The notes under the pieces: generated by a model
What the model saw: the letters and a program-made list of their open reading frames with translations, nothing else
Told to the model about the DNA's origin: nothing
Database searches by the model: none
Shown here: one piece after another, positions 3,228 through 56,668 of the stretch
How the letters are laid out: the number at the start of each line of letters is the position of its first letter
How positions within the stretch are numbered: the first letter of the stretch is position 1
Translations under genes and position numbers: made by a program
NCBI GenBank assembly: GCA_020860385.1
Contig: JAJBUK010000066.1
Span: 75 to 64,074, forward strand
Reading direction: 5' to 3'
Source of the DNA: Clostridiales bacterium
Lineage (GTDB): Bacteria; Bacillota; Clostridia; Oscillospirales; Oscillospiraceae
DNA length: 64,000 nt

Positions 3228-3243
3228 GGAGAGGCGCTTATCC

Positions 3244-20320: not shown

Positions 20321-21502
20321 ATGACGTGGACTTGCCCTGTATGCCATGCCGACAACAGCAGCGGGTGGAGCTTTTGCAAGGAATGCGGCTTTGACCGCAG
20401 CTGTGACTATGAGGGATACCCGACCCTGGCCGCGTCCCTTCCCGCCGGGGCCAGGCCGGTGTCCGCTCTGGCCGCCGCCTGGCAGCAGAAGCTGGTGCCG
20501 GGGGCGCTGCTTTGCCCTGACTGCGGCAATGCGGCGTTTTACTACTCATCCCAGCTGGGGCAGCTGATTTGCACCCGCTGCCGCAGGGCGGTGACGCTGT
20601 CCGGGAAAGCTCAGGTGCGCAGGGACAGACCTTCCGCGAAAACGCCCTCCGTTGCCCTCCAGCGCGGCGCTTCCATCACCTGCGGGGCGGAAAACGTTGC
20701 TGCTGTCAAGGTGGACGGAACCTGTGTCGCAGCGGGGAATAACCGTTCCGGTCAGTGCAGGGTGGAAGGCTGGAAGGATTTAATCGCGGTGGCCGCCGGG
20801 GCCGAACACACGGTGGGCCTCCGTTCAGACGGAACCGTTGTGGCCACGGGGAGCAACTGGAGCGGTCAGTGTGGTGTAAGCGACTGGGCGGGCATCACTG
20901 CGATTGCCGCCGGACGCTGGCACACGGCAGGGCTGAAAGCGGACGGCACCGTTGTGGCCGCCGGGGGCAACGCGGGCAAACGGTGCAATGTGGGAAAATG
21001 GACCGACATCATTGCGGTGGCCGCCGGAGGCAACCATACGGTGGGGTTGCGGGCCGACCACACGGTCGTTGCTGAGGGGGAAAACGGCTTCTATGGACAG
21101 TGCAATGTGAGCGGTTGGCACGATATTGCGGCGATAGCCGCCGGGGCCTGCCACACGGTGGGGCTGCGCACCAACGGAACGGTGATTGCTTCGGGCAGCA
21201 ACGGCTCCGGGCAATGTAACGTGGAAAAATGGACAGGTATCATCGCGGTGGCTGCCGGAGAATACCATACAGTGGGCCTGAAATCCGATGGCACAGTGGT
21301 CGCTGTTGGAAGTAATGTTTCTGGCCAATGCAACGTAAAAAGCTGGAGAAATATCGTTGCGGTGGCGGCAGGAGCCGGGCATACGGTAGGGCTGCGGGCG
21401 GACGGTACGATGGTCGCCGTGGGGGAAAACCAGAGCGGCCAATGCAATGTGAAGAAGTGGCGGGGTATCGCCCTTCCTGCCGCAAATCCAATGCACCGAT
21501 AA
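20321..21502 (+). CDS. Zn-ribbon + RCC1-like 7-repeat beta-propeller protein, paralog 1
   Basis: CPVC..CKEC and CPDC..CTRC pairs, then seven ~38-aa repeats IxAxAAGxxHTVGLxxDGTVVAxGxNxxGQCNVxxW; no signal peptide. Confidence 0.88.
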   Translation: MTWTCPVCHADNSSGWSFCKECGFDRSCDYEGYPTLAASLPAGARPVSALAAAWQQKLVPGALLCPDCGNAAFYYSSQLGQLICTRCRRAVTLSGKAQVRRDRPSAKTPSVALQRGASITCGAENVAAVKVDGTCVAAGNNRSGQCRVEGWKDLIAVAAGAEHTVGLRSDGTVVATGSNWSGQCGVSDWAGITAIAAGRWHTAGLKADGTVVAAGGNAGKRCNVGKWTDIIAVAAGGNHTVGLRADHTVVAEGENGFYGQCNVSGWHDIAAIAAGACHTVGLRTNGTVIASGSNGSGQCNVEKWTGIIAVAAGEYHTVGLKSDGTVVAVGSNVSGQCNVKSWRNIVAVAAGAGHTVGLRADGTMVAVGENQSGQCNVKKWRGIALPAANPMHR

Positions 21503-21534
21503 CTTGACCCACCCAAGAAAAGAGGAAACGTACA

Positions 21535-22716
21535 ATGACATGGATTTGCCCAGTCTGCCAGGCGGAATGCTCCGCCCCGTGGATTTGCCCCAGCTGCGGG
21601 TTTGACCGCAGCTGTGACTGTGAACAGTATGGGACGCTGACCGCGCCTCCTCCCGCCGGGGGGAAGCCGGTGTCCGCCCTGGCTGCCGCCTGGCGGCAAA
21701 AGCAGATGCCGGACGCGCTGACCTGTCCCGGCTGCGGCGGCGTGACCTTCTATTATTCACTGAGCAGGAAAGAGCACGTTTGTACGAATTGCCGTACCGT
21801 GGTGCCGCTGAACCAAGACCAGCGGGCTGTGGCGCGCAGCGAGCCCCCCAGCCCGCCCGTTGCCAAGACCCTCATCGTCCCGCGCCAGTGCGCTACGATT
21901 GCCTGCGGCACAAATCATATGGCCGCCGTGAAAGCGGATGGAACGGTAGTCGCCAAGGCAACCTCGATCGTGCGCGCCTCAGGGCAGTTTGATGTCCTCG
22001 GTTGGAGCGAAATCGTGTCGGTGGCTGTCGGATACCGGCACACAGTAGGGTTGCGGCGGGACGGTACGGTAGTTGCTGTAGGCTCGAACAGCCATGGTCA
22101 GTGCGCTATAACCGATTGGAAGGGAATCGTGGCAATCGCTGCCGGAGATAACCATACGGTAGGGCTGCGGTCCGATGGCACGGTGGTCGCCACAGGGAAA
22201 AATTCATCCGGACAATGCAATACAACCGAATGGAAGCCAATTATAGCGATAGCGGCTGGGAACAGCCATACCGTGGGCTTGCGGCCTGACGGCACGGTGG
22301 TCTCGGCAGGCGAGTATGATAAATGCAATGTGTATTTATGGGAGAAAATCGTCGCTTTAGCAGCCGGAAACAGACATACGATAGGGCTGCGGTCTGACGG
22401 CACAGTGGTCGCCGCCGGGGACAACGGTTCCGGACAATGTGACGTGATCGCCTGGAGGGATATTGTGGCGGTAGCTGCCGGAGAATATCATACGGTGGGG
22501 CTGAAATCTGACGGCACAGTGGTGGCCGTGGGGAAGAGCGATTTTAACCAGTGCAATGTGCTTGCCTGGCGCGATATTGTGGCGGTGGCCGCCGGGCGCT
22601 ATCACACGGTCGGATTGCAGCGTGACGGCATGGTGGTCATTGCGGGAAGAAAGGGGTCCGGACAGCATGACCTGCCGGGCTGGTGGGGCATCGCCCTCCC
22701 GGAGACCCAAACCTGA
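21535..22716 (+). CDS. Zn-ribbon + RCC1-like 7-repeat beta-propeller protein, paralog 2
   Basis: Same 393-aa architecture; shares FDRSCD.E.Y.TL and KPVSALAAAW.QK with paralog 1. Confidence 0.88.
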   Translation: MTWICPVCQAECSAPWICPSCGFDRSCDCEQYGTLTAPPPAGGKPVSALAAAWRQKQMPDALTCPGCGGVTFYYSLSRKEHVCTNCRTVVPLNQDQRAVARSEPPSPPVAKTLIVPRQCATIACGTNHMAAVKADGTVVAKATSIVRASGQFDVLGWSEIVSVAVGYRHTVGLRRDGTVVAVGSNSHGQCAITDWKGIVAIAAGDNHTVGLRSDGTVVATGKNSSGQCNTTEWKPIIAIAAGNSHTVGLRPDGTVVSAGEYDKCNVYLWEKIVALAAGNRHTIGLRSDGTVVAAGDNGSGQCDVIAWRDIVAVAAGEYHTVGLKSDGTVVAVGKSDFNQCNVLAWRDIVAVAAGRYHTVGLQRDGMVVIAGRKGSGQHDLPGWWGIALPETQT

Positions 22717-22801
22717 CCCCATGACGGACTGACAGAAGCGGGGCAGGCATGGGGCAGTATCAGGCTGCCCGCCATAAAAAAACAAAAAATACATAAAACT
22801 A

Positions 22802-26583: not shown

Positions 26584-26611
26584 AAGCATGGTAAGGAAGG
26601 CGGAAGGCACG

Positions 26612-35779: not shown

Positions 35780-35782
35780 AGG

Positions 35783-36232: not shown

Positions 36233-36424
36233 ACGCACAAGCTCCTTTTCCGTGAAAATAAGTCGAATGCTGCATGATGCGGCGTTCGACTTATTTTATG
36301 CGCTGGCGGGGGAAAGGGTGCAGGCCGGAGCACGCTGCGTTGGTGCCTGGAAAACGACATATCATTCCGTTTCGGCATGAAAGCGAAAAAGAGGCGGAAA
36401 TCCGCCGGTCAGGAGCGCACCGGG

Positions 36425-37345: not shown

Positions 37346-37365
37346 TTGACATACCTCACAAATCT

Positions 37366-37380
37366 ATTCTAGTCTGGAAT
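37366..37380. promoter_or_regulatory. LysR-type binding box in the divergent intergenic region
   Basis: ATTC-N7-GAAT dyad containing T-N11-A, upstream of TTGCAA-N17-TATAAT (37401-37429). Confidence 0.6.
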
Positions 37381-37545
37381 CGATTATACAGGATTTTGAA
37401 TTGCAAGTCAAGTTTTTGGAAACTATAATATGAAACAGATACGAAAACCGGCTACCAAAGGTCGCGGAAACGCCGGAACACGCGGCGCGCCAGGGGGCCT
37501 ATCCAGCCAGTCAAGCGGTATCACATCAAAAGGAGGAGTATATCT

Positions 37546-38904: not shown

Positions 38905-39017
38905 TCAACCTTATCACTCATCACTGTGCATAAGTAAGCTTTGTACTCCCTTACCGGGACAGCGGAGGTGTTGTTTCTCGGCTGTCCCGGTTTTCTTTTT
39001 AGAAAGGATGGTTTAAA

Positions 39018-39974
39018 ATGAGTCTGGAAAATAAGCCCTTTAGTCTGGAGGACTATGACAAGCTGGAAGGCTCCCTGCGCTTTGACGCCCCTGCCGAAGG
39101 CGGCGCGCCAGCCATGGAAATGAAAATGGCCGACATCAGCTGGGTCAAACGGAAATTCCTGGACATTCCCTATGCTGACCAGTCCCCGGCCCAACGGCTG
39201 GACCTCTACCTCCCGGAGGAAGGGGAGGGGCCCTTCCCGCTGGTGGTGCATCTCCACGGCGGCGGCTTCGGCATGGGCGATAAGCGGGACGACCATATGG
39301 ACACCTACCTGAAAGGGCTGGCCCACGGCTACGCCATCGCCTCGGTGGAGTACCGCCTCAGCGGCGAGGCCATCTTCCCCGCCGCCGTGCTGGACTGCCG
39401 GGAGGCGTTCCGCTTCCTGCGCAAGCACGCGGCCCAGTACGCCATCGACCCCAACCGCATCTGCGCCCTGGGGGGCAGCGCCGGAGGCAACCTGTCCGCA
39501 CTGATGGGCATGAACATTCCCAACGGCCAGTTCCCAGGCGAGGAGGGCATGACCTTCGATACGGACTGCACCGTGCAGGCCTGCATCGACCAGTTCGGCC
39601 CCATCGACTTCCGCACCATGGACGACCAGGCCAGAGCCAACGGCGTCAGCTTCGTGGATCACGATACGCCCCAGTCTGCCGAGAGCAGCTATATGGGCGG
39701 CGCGTTGCCCGACCTGTCCGACGAGTGGCTGGCCAAGGCAAACCCTGCCACCTACATCAATGAGAACATGGCCCCCATGCTGGTGGAGCATGGCTGTGTG
39801 GATAAGTTGGTGCCCTTTATGCAGAGCGTCAACTTCGTCAACGCCATCTATCAGAAGCTGGGCCAGGGCCGGGTGGAGTTCGTCCCCCTGCCCAACGCCG
39901 ACCATGAGGACAAGGAGTATTCCAGCGAGTGGAATATGAATGTTCTGTGGACATGGCTGGACAAACATCTGTAA
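39018..39974 (+). CDS. alpha/beta hydrolase, HSL/BD-FAE-like carboxylesterase
   Basis: HGGGF oxyanion motif, GGSAGG nucleophile, HGCVDKLVP and ADHE. Confidence 0.88.
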   Translation: MSLENKPFSLEDYDKLEGSLRFDAPAEGGAPAMEMKMADISWVKRKFLDIPYADQSPAQRLDLYLPEEGEGPFPLVVHLHGGGFGMGDKRDDHMDTYLKGLAHGYAIASVEYRLSGEAIFPAAVLDCREAFRFLRKHAAQYAIDPNRICALGGSAGGNLSALMGMNIPNGQFPGEEGMTFDTDCTVQACIDQFGPIDFRTMDDQARANGVSFVDHDTPQSAESSYMGGALPDLSDEWLAKANPATYINENMAPMLVEHGCVDKLVPFMQSVNFVNAIYQKLGQGRVEFVPLPNADHEDKEYSSEWNMNVLWTWLDKHL

Positions 39975-44759: not shown

Positions 44760-45794
44760 ATGATGGAACGCAGAAAATGGCTCACCGAGATTCCCAAGGT
44801 GGAGCTGCACTGTCACCTAGACGGCAGCCTGCCGCCGGAGGCCATGACGGACTACCTGACCCGGACAGGCCGCGTCCCAGCAGGGGAGAGGCTCCGGTAC
44901 TCCGTTCCGGCGGACTGCACCAGCCTGGCGGACTACCTGACCTGCTTTGACCTGCCCCTGCTGTGCCTGCAAACAGAGGACAGCATTGCGGACTTTGTCG
45001 CTGCCGTCCTGCGGGAGGCGGTGCGGGAGCGGGTGTTCTACCTGGAGCTGCGGTTTGCCCCCATGTTCTCCCAGGAGGAGGGGCTGACGCTGGAGCGGGT
45101 TTTTGCCGCTGTCCAGCGGGGCAGGGAGATTGGAACGGCGGAGACCGGCGTCCGCTGCGGTTTCCTGGCCTGCGCCATGCGGAACCTCACGCTGGCTCAA
45201 AATCTGGAGATGCTGGAGGAGGCCGCCCGATGGTACCCTGACCTGATTTGCGGGCTGGATCTGGCCGGGGACGAGGCAGCGCACCCCACCCGGGAGCAGG
45301 AGCAGCTGTTCCGCCGGGCCAGAGAACTGGGCATCCCCTTCACCATTCATTCCGGCGAGACGGGCAGCGTGGAGAACCTGGAAGTCGCCCTGTCCTACGG
45401 CGCGGCCCGGGTGGGCCACGGCATCGCCCTGCAAAAATCCCCGGCGCTGCTGCGGGCATATGCAGAGGCGGGCATCGGCGTGGAACTGTGTCCCCTCAGC
45501 AATTTGCAGACCAGGGCGGTACCCGGCTGGGAAGCATATCCCTTCCGGCAGTTCTATGAGGCCGGGCTAACCGTGTCCATCAACACGGACAACCGCACCG
45601 TCAGCGGCACCACCCTGACGGAGGAACTGGAGCGGCTCTGCGTTCACTGCGGACTGACTCCGGCGGAGGTTCCGGCGCTGCTCCGGAACGCCAACCGCTG
45701 CTCCTTTGCCCCGGCCCAGGTAAAAGCCGACTATGAGGCGGCGTTAAAGGCATTTTTGCGGCGGAATCCACCGGAGGAGGTCACTATACCATGA
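44760..45794 (+). CDS. add: Adenosine deaminase
   Basis: ELHCHLDGS, DLAGDE, HSGE, GHG, ELCPLSN and NTDN motifs. Confidence 0.9.
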   Translation: MMERRKWLTEIPKVELHCHLDGSLPPEAMTDYLTRTGRVPAGERLRYSVPADCTSLADYLTCFDLPLLCLQTEDSIADFVAAVLREAVRERVFYLELRFAPMFSQEEGLTLERVFAAVQRGREIGTAETGVRCGFLACAMRNLTLAQNLEMLEEAARWYPDLICGLDLAGDEAAHPTREQEQLFRRARELGIPFTIHSGETGSVENLEVALSYGAARVGHGIALQKSPALLRAYAEAGIGVELCPLSNLQTRAVPGWEAYPFRQFYEAGLTVSINTDNRTVSGTTLTEELERLCVHCGLTPAEVPALLRNANRCSFAPAQVKADYEAALKAFLRRNPPEEVTIP

Positions 45795-46261
45795 GAAGAA
45801 GCGACCGGGCCGTCACCGACCCCCAGAAAATCGACACTATCATTCAGTCCTGCGACTGCTGCCGTCTGGCCTTCGCCACCGGCGGCGCGCCGTATATCGT
45901 TCCCCTGAATTTTGGCTTTGCCTGGGAGGATGGCGTGCGTGTCTTTTACTTTCACAGCGCTACAGAGGGGCGAAAGCTGGAGCTGCTGCGGGAAAGCCCT
46001 GTGGTGGGCTTTGAGCTGGACGCCAACCATCGCCTGAACGCCGGGGATACCGGCTGCCAGTATTCCTACCGCTTTCGAAGCGTCATCGGCACAGGCCAGG
46101 CGGCGCTGGTAGAAGATGCGGAAGGAAAACGGCAGGCGCTGACCCTGCTGCTGGCCCATTATACCGGCCGGAGCGACTGGGCCTTCCCTGACGCCGCGCT
46201 GGAGCAGGTGGCGGTCTGGCGGATGGAGGTGCTGACCCTTTCCTGCAAGGAGCATCTCTGA
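45791..46261 (+). CDS. Pyridoxamine 5'-phosphate oxidase-like flavin-binding protein (NimA-like)
   Basis: PYIVPLNFG, YFHSATEGRK and FRSVIGTG motifs. Confidence 0.85.
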   Translation: MRRSDRAVTDPQKIDTIIQSCDCCRLAFATGGAPYIVPLNFGFAWEDGVRVFYFHSATEGRKLELLRESPVVGFELDANHRLNAGDTGCQYSYRFRSVIGTGQAALVEDAEGKRQALTLLLAHYTGRSDWAFPDAALEQVAVWRMEVLTLSCKEHL

Positions 46262-46293: not shown

Positions 46294-46333
46294 GCACAGG
46301 AGCAGGAATCCGACCGGATTCCTGCTCCTGTGC
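46294..46333. terminator. Perfect 18-bp hairpin after the luxS operon
   Basis: GCACAGGAGCAGGAATCC-gacc-GGATTCCTGCTCCTGTGC. Confidence 0.7.
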
Positions 46334-46369: not shown

Positions 46370-46398
46370 TTGACACATACTCCTGAGCCTTGTATAAT
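46370..46398 (+). promoter_or_regulatory. Perfect-consensus sigma-A promoter of the Zn-ribbon/SPFH operon
   Basis: TTGACA-N17-TATAAT. Confidence 0.85.
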
Positions 46399-46451: not shown

Positions 46452-47045
46452 ATGGCTTATCAGGCGGTCTCCACCAAATGCCCCAACTGCGGCACGCCCG
46501 TTGATATTGACAATCCCGTTTGTGAATCCTGCGGCACAAAGCTGTATATCACCAATTATGATACGTTTTTCAATATGCCGCAGCAGCTGGCTCAAAACTA
46601 TGCCAACGCCTATCGTGAGCCTCTGGCGGCGCGGCCAAATGACGGCCAGCTGAACCTTTCCGCCGCCATGTGCTTTCTGAGGCTGCACCTTTACGACCAG
46701 GCGGAGAAAGCCTTTGAGCGTGCCATGACGGATGATATGAACAATCCGGAGCTTTACTTCTATGCGGCGGTTGCCCTGTTGAAGGGGCAGCGGCCCTTCC
46801 TGGCGGGACGGGCGGCCATCCTCAAAATTGAGGAATACGTCAATGCGGCGCTGATGATTCATCCGCGGGGCATCTATTATTATTTCTTTTCATATGTAAA
46901 ATACGACTTTTATTTCAACAAGCATCTGCGCACATCCCCCACTTATCAGGAAACGCTGCAAGCTGCGCTGAGGGCGGGCCTTACTACCCGAGAGGTCCAG
47001 CAGCTGTATGCAACGCTGGGCACCGCGAAGCCGGCCTGCCTGTAG
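46452..47045 (+). CDS. Zn-ribbon + TPR protein
   Basis: CPNCG..CESCG, then TPR-like AMCFLRLHLYDQAEKAFERAMTDDMNNPELYFYAAVALL. Confidence 0.75.
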   Translation: MAYQAVSTKCPNCGTPVDIDNPVCESCGTKLYITNYDTFFNMPQQLAQNYANAYREPLAARPNDGQLNLSAAMCFLRLHLYDQAEKAFERAMTDDMNNPELYFYAAVALLKGQRPFLAGRAAILKIEEYVNAALMIHPRGIYYYFFSYVKYDFYFNKHLRTSPTYQETLQAALRAGLTTREVQQLYATLGTAKPACL

Positions 47046-47163
47046 TCCTGTCGAAGTCCGCCAAATGGAGAGGGGCGGCATAATATCATCAGAAGGGCTG
47101 TTCTCCCGCCGCAGCGCGCGGCGGCCCGGCCTTTTTGAAATAAAATGAGAGAGAGGAAACATC

Positions 47164-48288
47164 ATGAACTGTCCTAACTGCGGAGCTACCCTGGAAAAGG
47201 ATGCCAGATTCTGCGTTGTCTGCGGGAATCCGGTACCTGAGGAGACCCCGGCGCAGGTCGGCGGAAGCTATACCCCCGGCGCTGATGCATCCACAACCTA
47301 CACCCCGGGAGGCTCTGGCTCCTACACCCCCGGCGGTTCGAGCGGCTACACCCCGGGAGGTTCGGGCACCTATACCCCTGGCGGAGCGAGCGGCTACACC
47401 CCGGGAGGTTCGAGTTCCTACACCCCCGGTGGTTCGAACGGCTACACCCCTGGCGGGTCTGGGAACTTTGGCGGCCCCGGCTACGGCTCCAATGTAGACC
47501 CTGATAATATACGGGAATACTTTTTTGGCCGTACATCCCGATTGCCCGCCATCCTGATTGTCGGTGGAGCTATCTTCTTTTGGACCGGTATTGGGCTGCT
47601 TGTGGCTCTGGTTGGCGTGGTTTTGTACTTTGTGTTCAAGTTCAACGGCTTCCCTTATGAGGATGAAGTGGACACAGCATGGAAAGAGCAAAAGGCTGTT
47701 ATGCACAAGCGGGGGCTGGAGAAGCTGAACCTGGTGCAGGAACAGATGAGCCTAATCAAACCGCTGGTATTAGTCGGCTTTGGCAAGTCTCCGGACAGCA
47801 GTTTTGCCACCGCCCAGGAGCAGGTTGCCAAGCAGAAGCAGAAGCAGAGCGGCTTCTTTGCCGCTCTGGGCGGATTGTTCAGCAGGAATAAGAAAAACGG
47901 AACAGAATACGACCCCGTTTTCGCCAGAAAAGTTGGGTCAGACGGCAGGACCCGCTCCCTGCTCCAGGAGGTCACCGTCTATGCCTTTACAGAGAATCAG
48001 GTTATGATGTATTCCGGCGACGTGGACATTTCCACCGGCCTTGTTTACAATGAGTATACGGCGGAATGCTTCTATGAGGATATTGAGGGCATTCAGCTCA
48101 GCGAATCTCTGTACAAGATTTTTAACACAAAGAAGCGCCGCTATGAGAATCGGCTCACTAACCAGTTCGTCTTATATCTGGGCGGCTGCAACTTCCCGTG
48201 CAGCGTGAACAGCGAAGTGGACTCCACGGTTGGAGAGGGCCAGTTCGCCGCCATGCGGAGCCTGATTCGGGAGAAGAAGAACGGCTGA
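47164..48288 (+). CDS. Zn-ribbon + YTPGG-repeat + TM-hairpin membrane protein
   Basis: CPNCG..CVVCG, 8-aa repeats, two TM helices, C-terminal soluble domain. Confidence 0.8.
   Translation: MNCPNCGATLEKDARFCVVCGNPVPEETPAQVGGSYTPGADASTTYTPGGSGSYTPGGSSGYTPGGSGTYTPGGASGYTPGGSSSYTPGGSNGYTPGGSGNFGGPGYGSNVDPDNIREYFFGRTSRLPAILIVGGAIFFWTGIGLLVALVGVVLYFVFKFNGFPYEDEVDTAWKEQKAVMHKRGLEKLNLVQEQMSLIKPLVLVGFGKSPDSSFATAQEQVAKQKQKQSGFFAALGGLFSRNKKNGTEYDPVFARKVGSDGRTRSLLQEVTVYAFTENQVMMYSGDVDISTGLVYNEYTAECFYEDIEGIQLSESLYKIFNTKKRRYENRLTNQFVLYLGGCNFPCSVNSEVDSTVGEGQFAAMRSLIREKKNG
47269..47460 (+). repeat. Degenerate 24-nt coding tandem repeat, (YTPGGxxx) about x8
   Basis: TA[CT]ACCCC[CGT]GG units at mostly 24-nt spacing. 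Confidence 0.9.
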
Positions 48289-48404
48289 GTGAAAGAAAAG
48301 CTTCCGTGAGCCTGTGCTCCACCGCCCTGTGCCGCTGCGCGGCGCAGGGCGTAGTGGGGCCAGGCAAATTGTTGTTAAGCTGTTAAAAGGAAAGGGAACC
48401 AGTT

Positions 48405-49457
48405 ATGATTTGTCCCTGTTGTGGAAAAGAGACGAAGGATGATGCTCAGTTCTGCGCCGCCTGCGGCTACAAAATCGCACGGTGCCCCGTCTGCAATCGG
48501 GTGCTGAGGACCAACGCCAGATTTTGTGCCTTTGACGGGACGCCGCTGCCGCCGGAGTTGGTAAAGGATTTGCCTGACCCGCCGATGCCGCGGGGAACGA
48601 TTCAGACGCCGCCGGAACCGCCGAAGCGCATTTATGTTACACCTGGAGGAGCCCATTCGTCGGGAAAGGGCCAGACAAGAGAGCAGTCCAAGCTGCCGAT
48701 CATCCTGGGGGCAGTGCTGATTGTGCTGCTGCTGGCCGGTATCGTGGTCGGCGTTGGCATCTGGCAGGGCTGGTTCTCCGGCGGACGCGCCGACCAGGAG
48801 GAGACGCTTTCCGTTCCGGCGGGCGAGACAGCCGACCAGAGCGAAGCGCCGGAGGACAGCGGGCTGGCTGCTGCTGACAGTGAGCTTCAGCCGGAGGACG
48901 CTGTTCAGAGCGAAACAGGCAGCGAGGCGGAGGAAAATGCTGTCCAGTCCTCCGAAGCGGAAGCGGAAGAGGAGGAACAGTCCGACACAGAAGCGGAGCA
49001 GGTGGAGATTCCCGTCTCTGAGCGCACTTATGAGATCGTGGCGTCTGACCTGTCCTGGTCCGAGGCTTATGAAGCGGCAATCGACGCAGGAGGCCATTTG
49101 GCGACTATCACCTCCGAGGAGGAGTATGAAGTCATCTGCGCCCTGGCGGACGAAAGCGGGCTGAAATACCTGTGGCTGGGCGCTGCCCTGACCTCGGATG
49201 AGATGGCATGGGGTGAGGACGGCTGCTGGATTACCGGGGAGGCCTGGAGCTTCGATGTCTGGTACCCTGGGGAGCCCAGCCTGGCTGACACCGACGGCAC
49301 TCAGGAATTTTGCCTGTGCCTGTGGAATGCCGCCTATGAAGGGGTGGATATCGGCTGGACCATGAACGACCAGCGGGATGACCTGGTGGAGGACTTCCCC
49401 TCCGTCAGCGGAAAGGTCGGTTACGTCATTGAGTTTGATGACGGGTACACGGAATGA
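48405..49457 (+). CDS. Double Zn-ribbon + TM + acidic linker + C-type lectin-like domain protein
   Basis: Four CxxC-type pairs, one TM; SWSEA..A...GGHLATITSEEE, WLG, WYPGEP and WTMND CTLD motifs. Confidence 0.8.
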   Translation: MICPCCGKETKDDAQFCAACGYKIARCPVCNRVLRTNARFCAFDGTPLPPELVKDLPDPPMPRGTIQTPPEPPKRIYVTPGGAHSSGKGQTREQSKLPIILGAVLIVLLLAGIVVGVGIWQGWFSGGRADQEETLSVPAGETADQSEAPEDSGLAAADSELQPEDAVQSETGSEAEENAVQSSEAEAEEEEQSDTEAEQVEIPVSERTYEIVASDLSWSEAYEAAIDAGGHLATITSEEEYEVICALADESGLKYLWLGAALTSDEMAWGEDGCWITGEAWSFDVWYPGEPSLADTDGTQEFCLCLWNAAYEGVDIGWTMNDQRDDLVEDFPSVSGKVGYVIEFDDGYTE

Positions 49458-50839
49458 GGGGAGAGGACCCGCGGCGGAGGCGATTCCGCATCCTTGGCCT
49501 TGCCCTCTGGTCTCTGGCTATGCTTGCCCTGGGAGTCGGGCTGGGGGCGTGGCTGACGGCGAGCCGGGCCGTCCCCGCCGCTGAGGATAGCGCAGACAGT
49601 GTGTCCTCCTCCAGCCTGACCGAGTCCTCTGAGGGGCTGGATGCCGAGGCTGAGGCCTCCCAGCCTGCGGCGGAGCAGCCGGAGGACCAGGAAGAGGACC
49701 AGACTGCGGAGGCGACTGATAGTTCCGCAGCGTCGGAAAGCAGCGTCGAGCCGGAGGCCCCGGAGCTTACCCGTGAGGAGGCCATCACGGCCCAGGCGCA
49801 GGAGCTTTTGGATTCCATGACGCTGGCGGAGCAGGTCTACCAGATGTTCATCGTCACGCCGGAGACGCTGACGGGGGTATCCACCGTCACTCAGGCGGGG
49901 GCGACTACTCAGGCGGCCCTCCAAAGCCATCCGGTGGGCGGGCTGGTCTACTTTGCTGCCAACATTGTTACGCCGGAGCAGTGTACCACCATGATTTCCA
50001 ACACCCAGTCCTATTCCAAAATCGGACTGTTCATCGCGGTGGATGAGGAAGGGGGACGGGTGGCCCGCATCGGCAAGAACAGAGCCATGGGCACCACCGC
50101 CTTCCCCAGTATGTCCGACATCGGCAGCACCGGCGATGTCAGCAAAGCCTATGAGGTGGGCAGTACCATCGGCACGGAAATCGCCCAGTTTGGCTTCAAT
50201 CTGGACTTCGCACCGGTGGCGGATGTCAACTCGAACCCCAACAACACCGTCATCGGGGACAGGGCCTTTGGCTCTGACCCGGAGGCGGTGGCTGAGATGG
50301 TGGCGTCCGCCGTCCAGGGCTTCCGGGACAGCGGAATGCTCTGCACGCTGAAGCACTTCCCCGGCCACGGGGACACCGACACTGACAGCCATTACGGCTA
50401 TACGGAGGTGCTGAAAACTCTCCAGGAGCTGCGGAGCGTGGAGTTCCTGCCCTTCCAGGCGGGCATTGACGCCGGAGCGGACTTCGTGATGATGGGCCAC
50501 ATCTCCGTCCCGGAGGTGACCGGGGACGATACCCCCGCCAGCCTGTCCGCTACGATGATCACTATCCTGCGGGACGAGCTGAACTTCCAGGGGCTAGTCA
50601 TCACCGATTCCATGGTGATGAGCGCGATTACCGACCGGTATACCTCCGCCCAGGCGGCGGTGCTGGCGGTGCAGGCCGGCGTTGACGTGATTCTGGAGCC
50701 GTCCAGCCTGACCGGCGCGGTGCAGGGTATCCTGTCGGCAGTGGAGGACGGCACGATTTCGGAGGAGCGTATCCGGGAGAGCGTGCTGAAAATCCTGGAG
50801 GTCAAAATCAGAAACGGCATCATTGCCTCGGAGTTCTGA
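49454..50839 (+). CDS. Membrane-anchored GH3 N-terminal domain glycosidase (NagZ-like beta-N-acetylglucosaminidase)
   Basis: VDEEGGRVAR, KHFPGHGDTDTDSH (Asp-His dyad) and ITDS nucleophile; N-terminal TM plus S/E/A linker. Confidence 0.85.
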   Translation: MRGEDPRRRRFRILGLALWSLAMLALGVGLGAWLTASRAVPAAEDSADSVSSSSLTESSEGLDAEAEASQPAAEQPEDQEEDQTAEATDSSAASESSVEPEAPELTREEAITAQAQELLDSMTLAEQVYQMFIVTPETLTGVSTVTQAGATTQAALQSHPVGGLVYFAANIVTPEQCTTMISNTQSYSKIGLFIAVDEEGGRVARIGKNRAMGTTAFPSMSDIGSTGDVSKAYEVGSTIGTEIAQFGFNLDFAPVADVNSNPNNTVIGDRAFGSDPEAVAEMVASAVQGFRDSGMLCTLKHFPGHGDTDTDSHYGYTEVLKTLQELRSVEFLPFQAGIDAGADFVMMGHISVPEVTGDDTPASLSATMITILRDELNFQGLVITDSMVMSAITDRYTSAQAAVLAVQAGVDVILEPSSLTGAVQGILSAVEDGTISEERIRESVLKILEVKIRNGIIASEF

Positions 50840-50880
50840 CGGCGCACGGTTGGAACTCTGCTTGTGTAGGAGGATTGTTT

Positions 50881-52572
50881 ATGGGTCAATTTGCCATAGA
50901 ATGCCCGCAATGCGGCAATTACGTCACCGCCTATAATGGGCTGCGTGGCCTGTTCCAGAACCGGATCACCTGCCGCTGCGGTGCGAAAATCGACATCCGT
51001 GCGGAGCGCATGACATCCATCGTGTGCCCTTCCTGCCGCAACTCCATCGTCTATGACCAGAGCAGGAAGAATCCCAGGTGCCCGGTCTGCAAATCCAGAA
51101 TCGCCCCGGCGACAGGGCTGAAAATGGTCAGCTTCCAGTGCCCGGAATGCGGCGTCAAGCTGACTGCCGAGGAGGGCACCAGATCCTATAGCTGCCCCAT
51201 CTGCGATTGCAGGATCGATGTGCAGCGGGAGCTGGCGAAGCAGCGCTACGCCAGCGAGGCGGCTGTCAGCATCATCCAATATGAGGGAGACAATCACACC
51301 TTTGCCTGGAAGCATCCCATCGAGGACTTTCAGACCGGCGCGCAGCTGGTGGTGCATGAAAACCAGGAGGCGGTGTTTTTTCGGGACGGACAGGCCCTGG
51401 ACGTGTTTCCTGCCGGGCACTATACCCTGGAGACCCAGAACCTCCCCGAAATGGACAAGCAATACCAGCTCCCCGTCGGAGCGGGGCGGACCCCCTTCCA
51501 TGCGGAGGTGTACTTCATCAACCTGACCACCCAAATGGGCATCAAATGGGGGACGGATTCCAAGACGCGGGTGTTTGACCCCGTCTCCGGGCTTCATGTG
51601 TCCATCGGTGCCAGCGGCGAGTTTAACATCCGGGCCACTGATTCCAAGCGTATCCTGCTGAAGCTGGTGGGGAATACCTCCGGCCTCATCATGGGGCAGT
51701 CCCTCCAGGCGCCCCAGGGGTCGGCCCAGCAGAGAAGCGGGTATCACTCTGACCCCTCCAACATGACGGGGTACTTCCGCGGGCTGGTCATGGGCCGGGT
51801 CAAGAGCTATCTGGCCACCGCGATTCGCCAGCAATCCATCAGCGTGCTGGAGCTGGACGAGCATATGACGGAGCTTTCCGATGCCCTGCGGGAGATCATT
51901 AACCAGGGCCTTGCGGAATATGGCCTGACCATGCCGGAATTCTACATCATGCGCTTCGCCACGCCAGAGGACGACCCGAATGACCCCATGCACGACCAGT
52001 ACATGGAGATGAAGAAGCTGTACGCCGAGCAATACCTGGGCGTGAGGCGGGAGCAGGTCGGCCAGGCGACAGCTGCGGCCGCCCGGGATCGCATCCTGAC
52101 GGAAGCGCAGACTAAGGCCCAGTCCCAGCTCATCGGCGCACAGGCGGAAGCGGAAGCATACCGCCTCAAGGCTGCCGCCGAGGCGGAGGAAATGCGGATG
52201 AAAGGCTATAGCTACCAGCAGGAAACGGCCCGTCAGGTGGGGCTGGAGGCCATGCAGAATGGCATTACCGGCGGCTCCGGCGGCGGAAGCGCCCTTGGGG
52301 ACATTGCCAGCCTGGGGATTACGTTGGGGGCCATGGGCAGCGTGGTCGATATGACCAGGGACGCCCTCCAGGGCACCGCGCCGGGTGCCGCTGCGCCGGG
52401 TGCCGCTGCGCCGGTCACACCGGGCAGGGCGGACGCCGCAGGAAGCAGCGCTCAGCCTGCCGGGGACGATCCGATGGCCGTCCTGCAAAGGTTGAAAAAA
52501 ATGCTGGACAGCGGACTCATCTCCCAGGAAAAGTATGACGCCAAGGTGGACGAGGTGCTGAGCCGGATGTAA
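50881..52572 (+). CDS. Multi-Zn-ribbon + SPFH/band-7 (YdjI-like) + SHOCT protein
   Basis: Several CxxC pairs; LVVHENQEAVFFRDGQ..F..GHYTLET, PFHAEVYFIN and KWGT; C-terminal LQRLKKMLDSGLISQEKYDAKVDEVL. Confidence 0.85.
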   Translation: MGQFAIECPQCGNYVTAYNGLRGLFQNRITCRCGAKIDIRAERMTSIVCPSCRNSIVYDQSRKNPRCPVCKSRIAPATGLKMVSFQCPECGVKLTAEEGTRSYSCPICDCRIDVQRELAKQRYASEAAVSIIQYEGDNHTFAWKHPIEDFQTGAQLVVHENQEAVFFRDGQALDVFPAGHYTLETQNLPEMDKQYQLPVGAGRTPFHAEVYFINLTTQMGIKWGTDSKTRVFDPVSGLHVSIGASGEFNIRATDSKRILLKLVGNTSGLIMGQSLQAPQGSAQQRSGYHSDPSNMTGYFRGLVMGRVKSYLATAIRQQSISVLELDEHMTELSDALREIINQGLAEYGLTMPEFYIMRFATPEDDPNDPMHDQYMEMKKLYAEQYLGVRREQVGQATAAAARDRILTEAQTKAQSQLIGAQAEAEAYRLKAAAEAEEMRMKGYSYQQETARQVGLEAMQNGITGGSGGGSALGDIASLGITLGAMGSVVDMTRDALQGTAPGAAAPGAAAPVTPGRADAAGSSAQPAGDDPMAVLQRLKKMLDSGLISQEKYDAKVDEVLSRM

Positions 52573-52616
52573 CGGGGCGCCTCTGTGCGCCGAGAGAGAA
52601 AGGAGCGTAGAGCCCT

Positions 52617-53318
52617 ATGAAGCGAACCCAAACGAGTGTCCTGATTTGGGCCATTGTGGTGGTGGTCTGCAACCTGGCCGCCTTTGTGATCCCCTTTCAA
52701 AAGACCGGGGTGTTCTGGCTGTCGGACGGCTTCCTGGTGGTTTCCCTGCTGGTCCTCTTTGCAGCGGAACGCATCGCCATGAAGGGCGCCGAGACGGCAA
52801 AGAGTAAATTCTATGGCTGGCCCATCCTGAGGGTGGGCTTTGGGTATGCAGCTGCCCTGTTGGCCTGCGCAGTGGTCTTTGTGGCCCTGTCTGTCCTCCT
52901 GCCACAGATGCCCCTCTGGCTGCCCCTGCTGGTCTATATCCTGCTGACCGGAGCCGCAGCTATCGGGCTCATCACTGCGGAGACCTCAAGGAGCTATGTG
53001 CAGGAGCAGGACCAGAAGGCGGAAACTAGCACGGACTTTATGCGTTGGTTTTACAGTCAGGTGCTGGCCCTGGGCGGCCAGGCTGAGGACGCCGCCTTGG
53101 CTGACGACCTGCGGCGGCTGGCAGAGGAGATACGCTACAGTGATTCTGTCAGCAGCGCAGCCACAAGGGAGCTGGAGGACAGGTTGTATGGGGAAGTCTC
53201 TGCCCTCGGTTCGGCCCTCAGCGGCGGCGATACGGTAGGCGCGGGCAGATTGTGCCAGCAGCTTTCCAGGGATTTGAAGACTCGGAACGCCCTGTGCAAG
53301 GCCAACAAGGGCCGCTGA
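52617..53318 (+). CDS. 4-TM membrane protein with a C-terminal helical bundle, function unknown
   Basis: Four hydrophobic segments in the first ~120 aa, then charged helices. Confidence 0.75.
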   Translation: MKRTQTSVLIWAIVVVVCNLAAFVIPFQKTGVFWLSDGFLVVSLLVLFAAERIAMKGAETAKSKFYGWPILRVGFGYAAALLACAVVFVALSVLLPQMPLWLPLLVYILLTGAAAIGLITAETSRSYVQEQDQKAETSTDFMRWFYSQVLALGGQAEDAALADDLRRLAEEIRYSDSVSSAATRELEDRLYGEVSALGSALSGGDTVGAGRLCQQLSRDLKTRNALCKANKGR

Positions 53319-53360: not shown

Positions 53361-53409
53361 AAAGCAGCAGCCCACCGGGGAAGGAACCCGGTGGGCTGCT
53401 GTTTGCTTT
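53361..53409. terminator. Bidirectional terminator between convergent operons
   Basis: CAGCAGCCCACCGGG-gaaggaa-CCCGGTGGGCTGCTG with A/T flanks. Confidence 0.8.
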
Positions 53410-53427: not shown

Positions 53428-54657
53428 TCAGTCTGTATGGCTCTGGTCGGCGACGCGGGACAGGGATTGATATAGCTCCCTGGCCCGGGCTGCATCCTCT
53501 TTGGTGGCCTGGTCATTGTACCGGGCGGCGATGTAGAGCTGCCGAAGGGCCTGGACTGCGGCGGGGTCAAAGGTGTAGCGGCTTTTGGCGGCCACGTCCT
53601 GGCTGGTGTCGCCAGCCTTCCGTTCCAGCCCCCGGCTGCGGTACAGCGCTAAAAACTTCTGATAGTACAGCCGCACCCGCTGAACAGGGGAGCGGGCGAA
53701 CCGGGGGAGGGGGCGGGGGCTGCTCCCGGCGACGGCGGAGCGCACCGTCCGTGCAGGCGGATCACCCTCCGCCCTCCTGGCGCTGCGGGAGAGCCAGCGG
53801 AACATCAGCACGATGAGGACTGCCCCCAAAAGCAGCGCAAGGGCGATACACACCCTGCTGAACAGCTCGCCATTGTTTCCGCTGGCTTCCAGGTCGCCAA
53901 ATAAGTCCTCCGTATCGCCCAGGGTCAGGGACTGCACCTCCTGCTCCTCCCCGGTGAAGCGAAACTGCACCCAGGAGAAGAGCCACAGCACGACCTGTAT
54001 CGCTGCCCCCAGCAGCTGGAACAGGGCCATCAGAATGGGGGCGAAAACGGTCTCGTACACCCACCGGAGGGCGGCGGCGCAGCCGTGCAAGAAGCCTCTG
54101 GAGCTGAGGCCCAGTGCGGCCAGTCCTATCCCTGCCGTCAGCGCCAGGTTCATAGCCTGGTACCGGGGCTGGCAGCACACCGCCAGGTCGTGCCGCAGGG
54201 AACGGTTCAGCAGGACGCAGCAGGCCAGCCCGATGAGCCCCGCGGGAATGGTGATGGCGGCGAGGAGGTCTCCGCAACCGACCATCAGTAGAAACAGGCA
54301 AAAGACCAGCAGCGCCTTCCAGAAAACGGAAAAAATATCCAGCTGGCGGCTCTGCTCCGGCAGATACCGCGTTCCCGCTGCCAGCCAAATCACATAGAGG
54401 GCCGGGGGCGCGATGGCGACCCAGGCGGCAAGGCTTCCGCCCGGCAGCAGCCAGCCCACCGCCAGCAGCGCCAGGGGCAGGAACCGGAGCCATCCCCGCT
54501 CCCGCAGCAGGTAGGTCAGCAGGCCTACGGCGCTCTGCACACCGTAGGCGGCCAGCAGCAGCGGGGCCTCCGCCCCGGCCAGCGCCGCAAAGAAGCCGCC
54601 GAAGGCGTAGTATATCCCCAGGTCGGACAGCAGTTTTAGCAGGACAAGGGCCGTCAT
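53428..54657 (-). CDS. Polytopic membrane protein with a C-terminal DUF4129-like domain
   Basis: Many TM helices; VRLYYQKFL...G......T..D.......ALRQLYIAARY pattern. Confidence 0.7.
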   Translation of the reverse strand: MTALVLLKLLSDLGIYYAFGGFFAALAGAEAPLLLAAYGVQSAVGLLTYLLRERGWLRFLPLALLAVGWLLPGGSLAAWVAIAPPALYVIWLAAGTRYLPEQSRQLDIFSVFWKALLVFCLFLLMVGCGDLLAAITIPAGLIGLACCVLLNRSLRHDLAVCCQPRYQAMNLALTAGIGLAALGLSSRGFLHGCAAALRWVYETVFAPILMALFQLLGAAIQVVLWLFSWVQFRFTGEEQEVQSLTLGDTEDLFGDLEASGNNGELFSRVCIALALLLGAVLIVLMFRWLSRSARRAEGDPPARTVRSAVAGSSPRPLPRFARSPVQRVRLYYQKFLALYRSRGLERKAGDTSQDVAAKSRYTFDPAAVQALRQLYIAARYNDQATKEDAARARELYQSLSRVADQSHTD

Positions 54658-55721
54658 AGGGCCGCCTCCTCTCCAATCAGCGTCCACAGTCCCACCCCGG
54701 CCCGGTCTGCCCACAGAGCGGCCAGCCGGAGGGCCTCCGGGTCGCGCTCCGGCGTGAGGAACAGCAAGCCGTGGGTGCCGTCAGAGCTGCGCACTGCCCG
54801 CTCCAACAGCACCTCGCAGGAGCAGGTGGGCTGATATAGCCCCCGGCCCAGCCCCTCCAGGATGTACAGGAGGTGGCGCTGGCCCAGCCCTTCGCTGACG
54901 GACTGCCAGGAGGCGAAGTCTCCGGCGGTGATGGCGTTGGTCTGGAAGGCGTACCGGATGCCCCGTTCCTCCAGCTGGCTGCAAAGGGTGCGGGCCAGGC
55001 TGTAGCAGGTTTCCATCAGCGGCTCCGGATCCTCCGCCTGACAGGCCACATTTAAAATCACGGTGACGGAGGTCTCCAGGGTGTAGTCATACTGCTTCAC
55101 CATCAGCTTACCGGTGCGGGCCATCTGCGTCCAGGACAGCATTTTCATCGGCTCCCGGCCTGTATAGTCCCGATAGCCAACCGTCAGCACCGGGTCCTCA
55201 TAGAGGAAGCGGTTCACGGAGAGGTCACCGGGGAAACCGCCGGAGAGCTGCCCCAAATCCTCCGCCGGGGCTTCCTTGGGCAGCACCACCACCTCCAGAA
55301 ACTGGTCATAGCTCTGCTGTTCCTCAGAAAGGCCCAGAAAATCCCCGCCGTAAACCGTCAGCCCATGCACCAGGTATCGCCCCCGCTTGTCGGCGGAGAG
55401 GGAGACGCGCTGGTCGAGCCGCTGCCTTGGGGACAGCCAGGTGGTGACGGACAGGTACTGCCCGCCCCGGTTGTCCGGCCGGAGCTGCCCGGAGGGCGCG
55501 TCCACCGTAAGGCTTCCAGGCAGGCGAACGACCACCCGCAGGAAGGGGAAGAAGGCCAGGCTGTGGTTCGTCAGGTGCAAAATCAGGTCAAACTGCGTCC
55601 CCGGCTCCACCAGCGGCTCTGAGAAAGACAACGTCGCCTCCAGCCCCTGCAGCCCCCGGCGGCGGGTCAGGTACTGAAGCAGGACAGCCAGCAGCACTAC
55701 GACGATGAGCAGGGCGATCAT
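54654..55721 (-). CDS. DUF58 domain protein (MoxR partner)
   Basis: RGRY.V......GDFLGL, GYRDYTGREPMKMLSWTQMARTGKLMVK. Confidence 0.85.
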   Translation of the reverse strand: MIALLIVVVLLAVLLQYLTRRRGLQGLEATLSFSEPLVEPGTQFDLILHLTNHSLAFFPFLRVVVRLPGSLTVDAPSGQLRPDNRGGQYLSVTTWLSPRQRLDQRVSLSADKRGRYLVHGLTVYGGDFLGLSEEQQSYDQFLEVVVLPKEAPAEDLGQLSGGFPGDLSVNRFLYEDPVLTVGYRDYTGREPMKMLSWTQMARTGKLMVKQYDYTLETSVTVILNVACQAEDPEPLMETCYSLARTLCSQLEERGIRYAFQTNAITAGDFASWQSVSEGLGQRHLLYILEGLGRGLYQPTCSCEVLLERAVRSSDGTHGLLFLTPERDPEALRLAALWADRAGVGLWTLIGEEAAL

Positions 55722-56668
55722 GGCTCAGCTTCCAGTGGGACGGGGGTCTTCTCCAGAATGCGCTGGAGAAAGTCCTCCGCCTTGGCATCCTTTGCGCCGC
55801 CTCCGGCCCCCAGCCGGTGGCACAGAACGAAGGGAGCCAGGTACTTCACATCCTCCGGCAGCACATAGGCCCGGCCGTTCAGGGCGGCGGTGGCCTGAGC
55901 CGCCCGGTACAATGCCTGCGCCCCACGGGTGGAGACGCCGGTGACAAAGGCGCTCTCCTGCCGCGTCCCCTGGATAATATCCATCAGGTAGCCCAGCACT
56001 GCCGGGGAGACCTTCACCTCCCGCCAGGCGGAGCGGACGTAGGCAGTCTCCTCCGCCGTGACAACTTGCCCCAGCCCGGCCAGCAAATCGGTGGCAGCGG
56101 GGCGGGCCAGGACGGACATCTCCTGTTCCCTGGTCATGTATCCCAGGGAGAGGCGCATGAAGAACCGGTCAATTTGGGCCTCTGGCAGAGGGAAGGTGCC
56201 GTAGGATTCCAGCGGGTTCTGGGTGGCCATCACCAGGAAGGGCTCCTCCAGGGGCATGGTGTCGCCGTCCACCGTCACCTGCCGCTCCTCCATGGCCTCA
56301 AGCAGGCTGGACTGGGTGCGGGGAGTTGCCCGGTTGATCTCATCCGCCAGGACGATGTTGGACAGCAGAGGGCCGGGACGGAACTGAAACGTACCGGTTT
56401 TCTGGTTGTAAAAGTGGATGCCGGTCAGGTCGGAGGGCAGCAGGTCGGGGGTGAACTGGATACGCTTAAAGTTGCCGCCCACGGTTTTGGCGAAGGCCCG
56501 GAGCAGCATGGTTTTGCCGGTACCGGGTACGTCCTCCAGCAGCACATGGCCGGAGCAGAGGAAGCTCGTCAGCACCAGGGTGATGACATCGTCCTTCCCG
56601 ACGATGACCTGGGAGCAGTTTGACAGCACCTTTTCTTTGTAATCTGTAAATTTGGAGAGCTCTAACAT
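55718..56668 (-). CDS. moxR: MoxR family AAA+ ATPase
   Basis: HVLLEDVPGTGKT, RIQFTPDLLPSD, LADEINRATPRTQSSLLEAMEE and LPEAQIDRF. Confidence 0.95.
   Translation of the reverse strand: MLELSKFTDYKEKVLSNCSQVIVGKDDVITLVLTSFLCSGHVLLEDVPGTGKTMLLRAFAKTVGGNFKRIQFTPDLLPSDLTGIHFYNQKTGTFQFRPGPLLSNIVLADEINRATPRTQSSLLEAMEERQVTVDGDTMPLEEPFLVMATQNPLESYGTFPLPEAQIDRFFMRLSLGYMTREQEMSVLARPAATDLLAGLGQVVTAEETAYVRSAWREVKVSPAVLGYLMDIIQGTRQESAFVTGVSTRGAQALYRAAQATAALNGRAYVLPEDVKYLAPFVLCHRLGAGGGAKDAKAEDFLQRILEKTPVPLEAEP

Follow-up and report, generated by a model that had tools for sequence, protein, structure and literature searches.

A six-gene operon of a Clostridiales bacterium that may encode a membrane-attached SPFH scaffold with zinc-ribbon-headed partner proteins

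The stretch of DNA analysed here (the window) comprises 64 kb of contig JAJBUK010000066.1 from an uncultured gut Clostridiales bacterium. The element studied is a unit of six genes on its + strand at 46452-53318, named g1 to g6; u1 to u13 are the genes of a second locus at 20-35 kb, and L-numbers designate comparison loci. An earlier note, made from the letters of the window alone, had described six co-oriented genes behind a perfect TTGACA-N17-TATAAT promoter. The open reading frames (ORFs) are confirmed, and the promoter agrees with the consensus at 12/12 positions and is the sole such site in the whole 64-kb window. The genes and the signals around them are given below (aa, amino acids; nt, nucleotides; TM, transmembrane; MFE, minimum free energy).

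46294..46333, + strand: perfect 19-bp inverted repeat, terminator hairpin of the upstream PNPOx-like gene (45791-46261); -38 kcal/mol (centroid), z -6.4
46370..46398, + strand: sigma-70/sigma-A type promoter, TTGACA-17-TATAAT, 12/12 consensus positions
46452..47045, + strand: g1, 197 aa; cytosolic zinc-ribbon and TPR protein
47089..47138, + strand: GC-rich hairpin followed by UUUUUG in the g1-g2 gap; MFE -44.9 kcal/mol, z -2.9; candidate partial terminator or attenuator
47164..48288, + strand: g2, 374 aa; zinc ribbon, YTPGGSxx repeats, 2-TM hairpin and tentative PH-like C-domain
48310..48365, + strand: strong hairpin in the g2-g3 gap, without a clear U-tract; MFE -54.3 kcal/mol, z -4.1
48405..49457, + strand: g3, 350 aa; double zinc ribbon, one TM segment, acidic stalk and C-type lectin-like domain
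49454..50839, + strand: g4, 461 aa; predicted exported NagZ-type GH3 on an acidic linker
50881..52572, + strand: g5, 563 aa; three zinc ribbons, Band_7_1 SPFH domain, coiled coil, G/A/P-rich linker and SHOCT-like tail
52617..53318, + strand: g6, 233 aa; 4-TM protein with a cytosolic helical bundle
53362..53404, unstranded: terminal hairpin between g6 and a convergent DUF4129 gene (ending 53428); 18-bp arms, 94% complementary, then TTTGCTTTC

The hairpin at 46294-46333 is the 5' boundary of the unit and the one at 53362-53404 is the operon terminator. The latter had been called bidirectional: the strong 18-bp hairpin stands, and bidirectionality is plausible at most: on the + strand the U-tract is imperfect, and on the - strand it is poor. 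No 12/12 promoter site was found in any of 100 shuffled sequences. The consensus promoter is kept 5' of g1 in L001/L007 (which overlap on one contig), L008, L009, L010, L067 and, among distant loci, L066 of Lachnospiraceae. In this last metagenome-assembled genome (MAG), an extracytoplasmic function (ECF) sigma factor and a zf-HC2 anti-sigma factor are encoded as a pair (L066:1924-2860) directly 5' of a g1-g2-HerA-SPFH operon, and the perfect TTGACA-17-TATAAT is still found 5' of g1. The gene order of the operon is maintained across related MAGs, and its sequence is present in three sequencing runs, all of DNA type.

The ATG of g4 overlaps the stop codon of g3 by 4 nt (ATGA), and g4 is predicted from this overlap to be translationally coupled to g3. 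The g4/g5 and g5/g6 gaps are 41 and 44 nt; the start of g5 is preceded by AGGAGG (8 nt 5'), and an alternative TTG start lies at 50875. Longer gaps, of about 117 nt, separate g1 from g2 and g2 from g3; both contain a GC-rich hairpin, the first being terminator-like with a U-run, and the unit may therefore be attenuated internally. These hairpins (the one between g2 and g3 at -54 kcal/mol) were not mentioned in the earlier note. The g2-g3 hairpin may have a role in RNA stability, processing or attenuation. The weaker promoter-like sites within the operon, at 48023-48051 (10/12), 48122-48150 (9/12) and 50466-50493 (9/12), are all inside coding sequence. A scan of 45.8-53.9 kb against Rfam gave no riboswitch or leader, the sole match being a chance miRNA on the terminator hairpin. 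The repeat search returned the hairpins and the tandem repeat that encodes the YTPGGS motifs of g2, and nothing else.

CxxC...CxxC motifs (regular expression) open g1, g2 and g3, all three of which also have Pfam Zn_ribbon/DZR matches above cut-off, and two such motifs are found in g5; four genes of the operon thus begin with zinc ribbons, as had been proposed. Three ribbons are counted in g5 by eye and two by regular expression because the second half-site of the first ribbon is CxC. The proposal that g5 encodes an SPFH protein holds as well, and the SHOCT domain proposed for it is probable. Band_7_1 (PF13421) is matched at 119.2 bits against a cut-off of 24 bits (E 2.5e-34), which places the protein in the SPFH superfamily. 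SHOCT (PF09851) itself is below its cut-off (17.7 vs 27 bits) and is backed by the tail (527-563), which aligns at an independent E-value of 3e-8 to the tail of the SPFH protein of L065, itself a SHOCT match at 28.7 bits. The g5 protein has no TM or hydrophobic segment and no sequence match among solved structures. Its homologs number in the thousands in Clostridia. Searches of plasmids (tblastn) gave three weak, SPFH-only matches, the one on Butyrivibrio plasmid pNP21 being a lone SPFH gene without g6 or a TIR partner.

The product of g6 has no match in Pfam, NCBIfam or PADLOC, and its 4-TM nature was not part of the earlier description. The AlphaFold2 (AF2) model has four TM helices and a cytosolic bundle (residues 125-231) with a predicted local distance difference test (pLDDT) score of about 90; its Foldseek matches are generic helical bundles and G-protein-coupled receptor noise, nothing more. 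An exhaustive profile search collected 3,813 cluster representatives of the family at 50% identity, and identity across distant loci is 24-39%. The g6 protein is likely the membrane anchor and the conserved partner of g5.

This partnership is seen in 58 loci obtained by a pattern search with the g6 alignment, using one genome per species (Lachnospiraceae, Oscillospiraceae, Ruminococcus, Pseudoflavonifractor and others). The g5 homolog is directly 5' of the g6 homolog in 45 of them and separated from it by 1-3 genes in 8 more (linked total, 53/58); the loci without this linkage are mostly explained by contig edges. More than 50 loci have g5-g6 without g1-g4. Among the organisms with the module, some are in culture, including Pseudoflavonifractor capillosus An827 (L038), Eubacterium sp. 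MSJ-21 (L046), Lachnospiraceae AC2031 and NE2001 (L057, L058) and Bacterium 1xD42-67 (L018); the clade of the window is represented by MAGs alone. In 39/58 loci, the dyad has co-oriented neighbours, 1-3 genes for large paralogous proteins (59 in all) that contain, from the N-terminus, a zinc ribbon (KCxxCG...CxxCG), TPR, TIR_2, TPR and a variable C-terminus; they are called ZnR-TPR-TIR proteins below (ZnR, zinc ribbon). The variable part is either an RCC1 propeller, a coiled coil, or a TM segment with an ectodomain, and TM plus variable ectodomain is found in about half of the 79 ORFs of a wider family set. All 59 TIR proteins have a W[VIL]x[NQ]E[WFL] motif with a conserved Glu, assumed here to be catalytic as in other TIR NADases, and 56/59 have N-terminal CxxC..CxxC motifs. 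A ZnR-TPR-RCC1 gene sits between g5 and g6 in several loci, and RCC1 domains are linked or fused to clients of the module in 20/58. The partners of the scaffold in most relatives are ZnR-TPR-TIR proteins, not glycan enzymes. A literature search on SPFH proteins with TIR, zinc ribbon or anti-phage function, and on PF13421, found no description of a ZnR3-SPFH/4TM/TIR cluster; the SPFH-4TM-TIR gene cluster is widespread in Clostridia and apparently undescribed. PADLOC models gave nothing meaningful on the g5 and g6 proteins of relatives and weak TIR-level matches (E 2e-5 to 5e-3) on their TIR proteins.

The g1 protein connects the operon of the window to these clients. It has a Pfam Zn_ribbon_3 match (7e-8), a weak TPR match and no TM segment. 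Its family aligns with the N-termini of 60 TIR proteins (hhalign probability 96-97%, E 3e-9 to 3e-10); by this profile similarity, g1 is a predicted stand-alone form of the ZnR-TPR head of the TIR clients, homologous to it. Full-length g1 homologs adjoin g2 homologs in about ten loci, and one lies next to every g2 homolog that could be examined.

The g2 protein starts with a Pfam Zn_Ribbon_1 match, followed by eight YTPGGSxx repeats (disordered) encoded by a 24-nt tandem repeat (47274-47467). Its C-domain, modelled by AF2 after the TM hairpin, is a seven-strand beta-sandwich plus a helix (pLDDT 70-90). The best Foldseek match of this domain is a bacterial PH domain, 3hsa (E 0.034, probability 0.9), none being found at 1e-3, and g2 has no Pfam bPH match. 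The C-domain family is small: 28 proteins were found. Two links to kinases are recorded. P0297 is a Ser/Thr kinase fused N-terminally to a g6-type 4TM/bundle module, and a Ser/Thr kinase gene (L072:7325-9316) lies directly 5' of g1-g2 in L072, where no SPFH gene is nearby. That the TP-rich YTPGGS repeats of g2 are kinase targets is a speculation.

The g1-g2 dyad is found with a Band_7_1 protein in L065, L066, L070, L073 and L075, and the latter protein has a C-terminal DZR or SHOCT where scanned; L065, L066, L070 and L073 have a g6-like 4TM gene as well. The slot between g2 and the SPFH gene differs according to the lineage. It holds the lectin and GH3 genes in the window and its closest relatives (MAGs with g5 83-98% identical), and an 891-aa HerA-like ATPase gene followed by genes of large proteins in L066, L069 and L073; one slot protein of L073 ends in a papain-fold glutamine-deamidase toxin domain. 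The g5-g6 and g1-g2 dyads are the conserved parts of the operon, and the operon of the window joins both. The metagenome contig L073 (2547-19249) encodes a TIR plus beta-propeller protein (1074 aa), a double-ZnR protein, g1, g2, the HerA-like ATPase (891 aa), a 699-aa protein with the papain-fold glutamine-deamidase toxin domain, proteins of the Band_7_1 and g6-like types and a zinc-ribbon protein of 999 aa; this cluster looks like a complete conflict-type system.

An external C-type lectin and a NagZ-like GH3 protein on acidic stalks had been assigned to g3 and g4, and both domain calls are probably right. The g3 protein has a Pfam DZR match (3e-8) and a TM segment at 93-125. Lectin_C (PF00059) is below its cut-off (19.7 vs 22.6 bits); phmmer against PDB gives more than 60 matches to C-type lectin-like domains, with many from animals (E 1e-10 to 1e-4; single-domain E 8e-6 to 1e-4), and the landmarks LWLGA, EPS and ND of this domain are conserved in five orthologs. 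The zinc ribbons of g3 are predicted to be cytosolic and its lectin-like domain external. The g4 protein matches Pfam Glyco_hydro_3 at 1e-83 (281.8 bits), and its best PDB matches are GH3 beta-N-acetylglucosaminidases (6k5j and 3bmx, about 1e-64; B. subtilis YbbD/NagZ, 2e-64). NCBIfam PRK05337 is not reached (191.8 vs 207 cut-off); the NagZ motif KHFPGHGDTDTDSH is present.

The N-terminus of g4 is a conserved hydrophobic segment followed by the acidic stalk and the GH3 domain. A lipobox, LTAC, is found in the g4 orthologs of L009 (L009:6845) and L010 (L010:6855), whereas the window has LTAS (49454-49570) and two other relatives have LTAN; the lineage therefore appears to have exchanged a lipoprotein for a form that is signal-anchored or secreted. 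The protein is predicted to be exported and could be either anchored or cleaved and released. The g3 and g4 genes are confined to the narrow clade of the window (the close-relative MAGs L007-L010 plus L067) and are a clade-specific insert. In L067 (GCA_021203105.1), g2 (2856-3933) and the GH3 gene (5078-6479) are each split into two ORFs, g1, g3, g5 and g6 being intact; frameshifts or assembly errors are likely the cause.

Bacterial SPFH scaffolds are ubiquitous and poorly understood. To our knowledge, YdjGHI/SamGHI of Bacillus subtilis, which ties membrane stress to PspA, is the only Band_7_1 system that has been dissected. The precedent named in the earlier note, an SPFH protein of the YdjI type encoded with a zinc-ribbon protein and PspA, is real (PMC8581546; bioRxiv 10.64898/2026.02.06.704340; PMC11237479). 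YdjI/SamI is a TM-less soluble Band_7_1 protein that needs YdjG and YdjH for its recruitment to the membrane (PMC8581546; bioRxiv 10.64898/2026.02.06.704340). In YdjG, a TM segment accompanies two zinc ribbons, and the SPFH partner of YdjG (written 'YdjL') has a C-terminal zinc ribbon (PMC11237479).

The operon of the window resembles pspA-ydjGHI (samGHI) in its TM-less Band_7_1 SPFH protein with zinc ribbons (g5), in a membrane protein with two cytosolic ribbons, one TM segment and an ectodomain (g3, which is comparable to YdjG by architecture alone), in a second membrane protein as a candidate anchor and in a putative link to the cell wall. It differs in that g1-g6 have no PspA_IM30, TPM_phosphatase (YdjH) or NTF2/YpeB-like Pfam match. 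The candidate anchor is a member of an unrelated 4TM family (g6). The three ribbons of g5 are N-terminal, whereas the B. subtilis ribbon is C-terminal; g1-g2, the lectin and the GH3 protein are added, and the promoter is of the sigma-A type instead of sigma-W. In six related loci (L001, L003, L005, L065-L067), the genes that had precomputed Pfam calls were likewise without any of the three domains.

The ZnR3-SPFH/4TM/ZnR-TPR-TIR clusters of Lachnospiraceae and Oscillospiraceae share with the window orthologous g5-g6 and the ZnR-TPR head of g1, and their membrane-anchored ectodomain clients are analogous to g3. Unlike them, the operon of the window has no TIR protein and no expanded client paralogs, and has g1-g2, the lectin and the GH3 protein instead. 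Likeness to TIR anti-phage systems (Thoeris ThsB and others) concerns the relatives only: they have TIR_2 with its conserved Glu and C-termini that vary and look sensor-like, and they are patchily distributed. These relatives differ in lacking a ThsA-like partner, and no TIR system listed in PADLOC has an SPFH/4TM platform. The g4 protein shares with the lipoprotein YbbD (NagZ) of B. subtilis the GH3 N-terminal catalytic domain, a KHFPGHG..DSH motif, predicted export and, in some orthologs, a lipobox. It differs from YbbD in lacking the C-terminal domain, in its long acidic linker and in being coupled to a lectin gene in an SPFH operon, not to amiE/murQ-type recycling genes.

The reading preferred here, given a probability of roughly one in two, is that of a membrane-attached SPFH scaffold and its zinc-ribbon-headed clients, encoded by two conserved dyads on either side of a variable cargo slot. 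By analogy with YdjG and YdjH, which recruit YdjI/SamI, g6, aided by g2, would hold oligomeric g5 on the cytosolic side of the membrane. Docking of clients would be the task of the zinc-ribbon or ZnR-TPR heads, and the clients would be lineage-specific, the cargo in the window being a putative transmembrane lectin receptor (g3) and a predicted exported NagZ-type enzyme (g4). Given the YdjI/SamI precedent, a g6/g2 anchor with docking heads and varying clients is the most economical model. Since the slot holds g3 and g4, the platform would here be coupled to the binding and trimming of wall glycans that contain N-acetylglucosamine (GlcNAc), not to a TIR output. In view of the TIR, HerA-like and toxin-domain partners and the diversifying client paralogs of relatives, the parent system would seem to serve conflict or immunity at the envelope, and the operon of the window would be a TIR-less, glycan-directed derivative of it. 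The suggestion that the operon forms a membrane complex that senses or trims cell-wall glycans is accordingly fair for the clade of the window and not for the conserved function of the module, g3-g4 being clade-specific and relatives using TIR.

Several points weigh against the scaffold reading. Docking by the heads is pure inference, and the hhalign similarity between g1 and the TIR heads may be partly generic, zinc ribbons and TPRs being common motifs. The PH-like assignment of g2 is sub-significant and made tentatively on a structural model. The g4 protein lacks a zinc ribbon and may leave the cell, and the two internal hairpins could, from their predicted folding, cut the unit into sub-transcripts. 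The operon of the window has no recognisable effector or output domain. PADLOC-DB v2 gave no defence-model match on g1-g6, just low-complexity matches at E >= 2.6e-4, and g5 had no match in phages by tblastn.

A wider form of the scaffold reading is possible and to be taken as tentative. The ZnR3-SPFH/4TM dyad would be the platform of a widespread, undescribed envelope surveillance system of gut Clostridia. The ZnR-TPR head would dock clients on an SPFH ring: TIR proteins of the NADase type with ectodomains or RCC1, HerA-linked toxins and kinases. The operon of the window would be a TIR-less derivative that reads and trims GlcNAc-bearing wall glycans, e.g. phage-receptor polysaccharides, and u1, u2 and u5 of the 20-35 kb locus would dock likewise.

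Among the rival explanations, a housekeeping envelope-stress module like PspA-YdjGHI/SamGHI fares best and is judged unlikely. The platform would recruit a PspA/ESCRT-III-type protein encoded elsewhere, and the lectin and NagZ-type proteins would link it to peptidoglycan turnover. NagZ enzymes of the GH3 family recycle muropeptides, and the PDB matches of g4 fit this; the promoter is also of a constitutive type, a sigma-A consensus. The same TM-less Band_7_1 subfamily and zinc-ribbon membrane proteins occur in both systems (PMC8581546; PMC11237479), and ydjG and ydjH mutants mislocalise cell-wall synthesis (PMC8581546). The absence of the PspA_IM30, TPM and NTF2/YpeB-like domains from the operon and from the precomputed calls of the six related loci argues against such a module, and so do the TIR, HerA-like and toxin partners and the diversifying clients of relatives, which are atypical of housekeeping stress systems.

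The operon could also be a mosaic of independent units on the same strand (g1-g2, a peptidoglycan-recycling pair g3-g4, and g5-g6) whose products form no common complex. The GC-rich hairpins of the g1/g2 and g2/g3 gaps, one of them terminator-like, are consistent with this, as are the confinement of g3-g4 to one clade, the occurrence of g5-g6 without g1-g4 and of g1-g2 without a nearby SPFH gene (L072), and the apparent frameshifts in g2 and g4 of L067 next to an intact g5-g6. Such a mosaic is nevertheless improbable: the internal promoter-like sites are all sub-consensus and lie within coding sequence, the arrangement g1-g2-X-SPFH-g6(-like) is found again, with other X, in independent lineages (L066, L073), the head of g1 is common to the TIR clients of g5-g6, and the g4/g5 and g5/g6 gaps are short.

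The weakest rival, drawn from the earlier note, makes the operon the membrane-anchoring half of one machine with the TM-less locus at 20-35 kb. This locus encodes two ZnR-RCC1 proteins (u1 and u2), an Hsp70-like protein, Pfam-less proteins (one with a weak ZapB-like coiled-coil match), two AAA ATPases and a HerA-like ATPase (u11); it has no TM protein and three zinc-ribbon-headed proteins, u1, u2 and u5. The paralogous pair is as follows.

20321..22716, + strand: u1 and u2, paralogous zinc-ribbon and RCC1-propeller genes; Pfam RCC1_2 at 1e-52 and 1e-56

The u5 protein (26588-27103, 171 aa) has a CxxCGG...CPYC zinc ribbon followed by a helix, and aligns weakly to the g1/TIR head (hhalign 77%, E 2e-5). 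One AAA protein, u9, is of the classic clade (Cdc48/VCP D2 1e-51, Vps4B 1e-28). Zinc-ribbon and RCC1 themes are thus common to both loci; propellers like those of u1/u2 are fused or adjacent to scaffold clients elsewhere, HerA-superfamily ATPases occur inside related g1-g2/SPFH operons, and u1 and u2 are tentatively regarded as scaffold clients. Against one machine, homologs of u3-u13 (Hsp70-like, coiled-coil, AAA and HerA proteins) are found within 10 kb of g5-g6 in 0/58 genome loci, and, apart from the P-loop, no relation to u11 could be detected in the HerA-like proteins of L066 and L073. The two loci are some 10 kb apart, with housekeeping genes (rsmI, a methyltransferase gene and those of PNP and adenosine deaminase) in between. 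Sequence searches of the upstream coiled-coil proteins, including u7 and u8, gave no ESCRT-III/PspA similarity, fold-level similarity not being examined.

Relative to L009-L011, the window is inverted from about 22.7 to 53.3 kb, with breakpoints at 22742 and 53338. The equivalent of 12.6-22.7 kb is inverted in L009-L011 and abuts g6; one break comes immediately after g6, and the other parts the RCC1 genes from the Hsp70-like gene (u3 onward). These RCC1 genes can therefore be uncoupled from the remainder of the locus. The adjacency of the RCC1 genes and g6 in L009-L011 was considered as an operonic link and rejected, the orientation being convergent and explained by the inversion. A link between the 20-35 kb locus and the operon is weak and partial; it is possible, and for most of the locus it has no support. 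A single machine is the least probable of the explanations.

Under the scaffold reading, the locus repeats the design of YdjGHI/SamGHI (an SPFH protein without TM segments, its recruiters in the membrane and zinc ribbons on either side) with another anchor family and interchangeable clients. The g6 protein defines a large unannotated family, with about 3,800 clusters at 50% identity. The ZnR-TPR head is common to g1 and to dozens of TIR proteins, which makes docking a concrete and testable hypothesis. The data tie SPFH scaffolds to conflict components of the TIR, HerA and toxin types in abundant gut and rumen Clostridia. If the reading is true, SPFH proteins would be assembly platforms for immune-type effectors, which would account for the commonness of zinc ribbons on membrane proteins of Firmicutes.

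Two neighbouring regions of the window are added here. At 35219-39968, from the HerA-like gene to a BD-FAE hydrolase gene, long ORFs are found on both strands; they have no Pfam matches, and several resemble antisense translations. Directly 3' of g6 and convergent to it, a trio of genes for a MoxR AAA protein, a DUF58-like protein and a DUF4129 membrane protein occupies 53428-56668 (- strand), likewise in L007, L008 and L067. A homologous trio (MoxR E 1e-120), co-directional with the g5-g6-TIR genes that precede it, is present in L034 (4127-7619), a distant locus of Lachnospiraceae. The presence of this trio beside g5-g6 may reflect either a recurrent association or chance.

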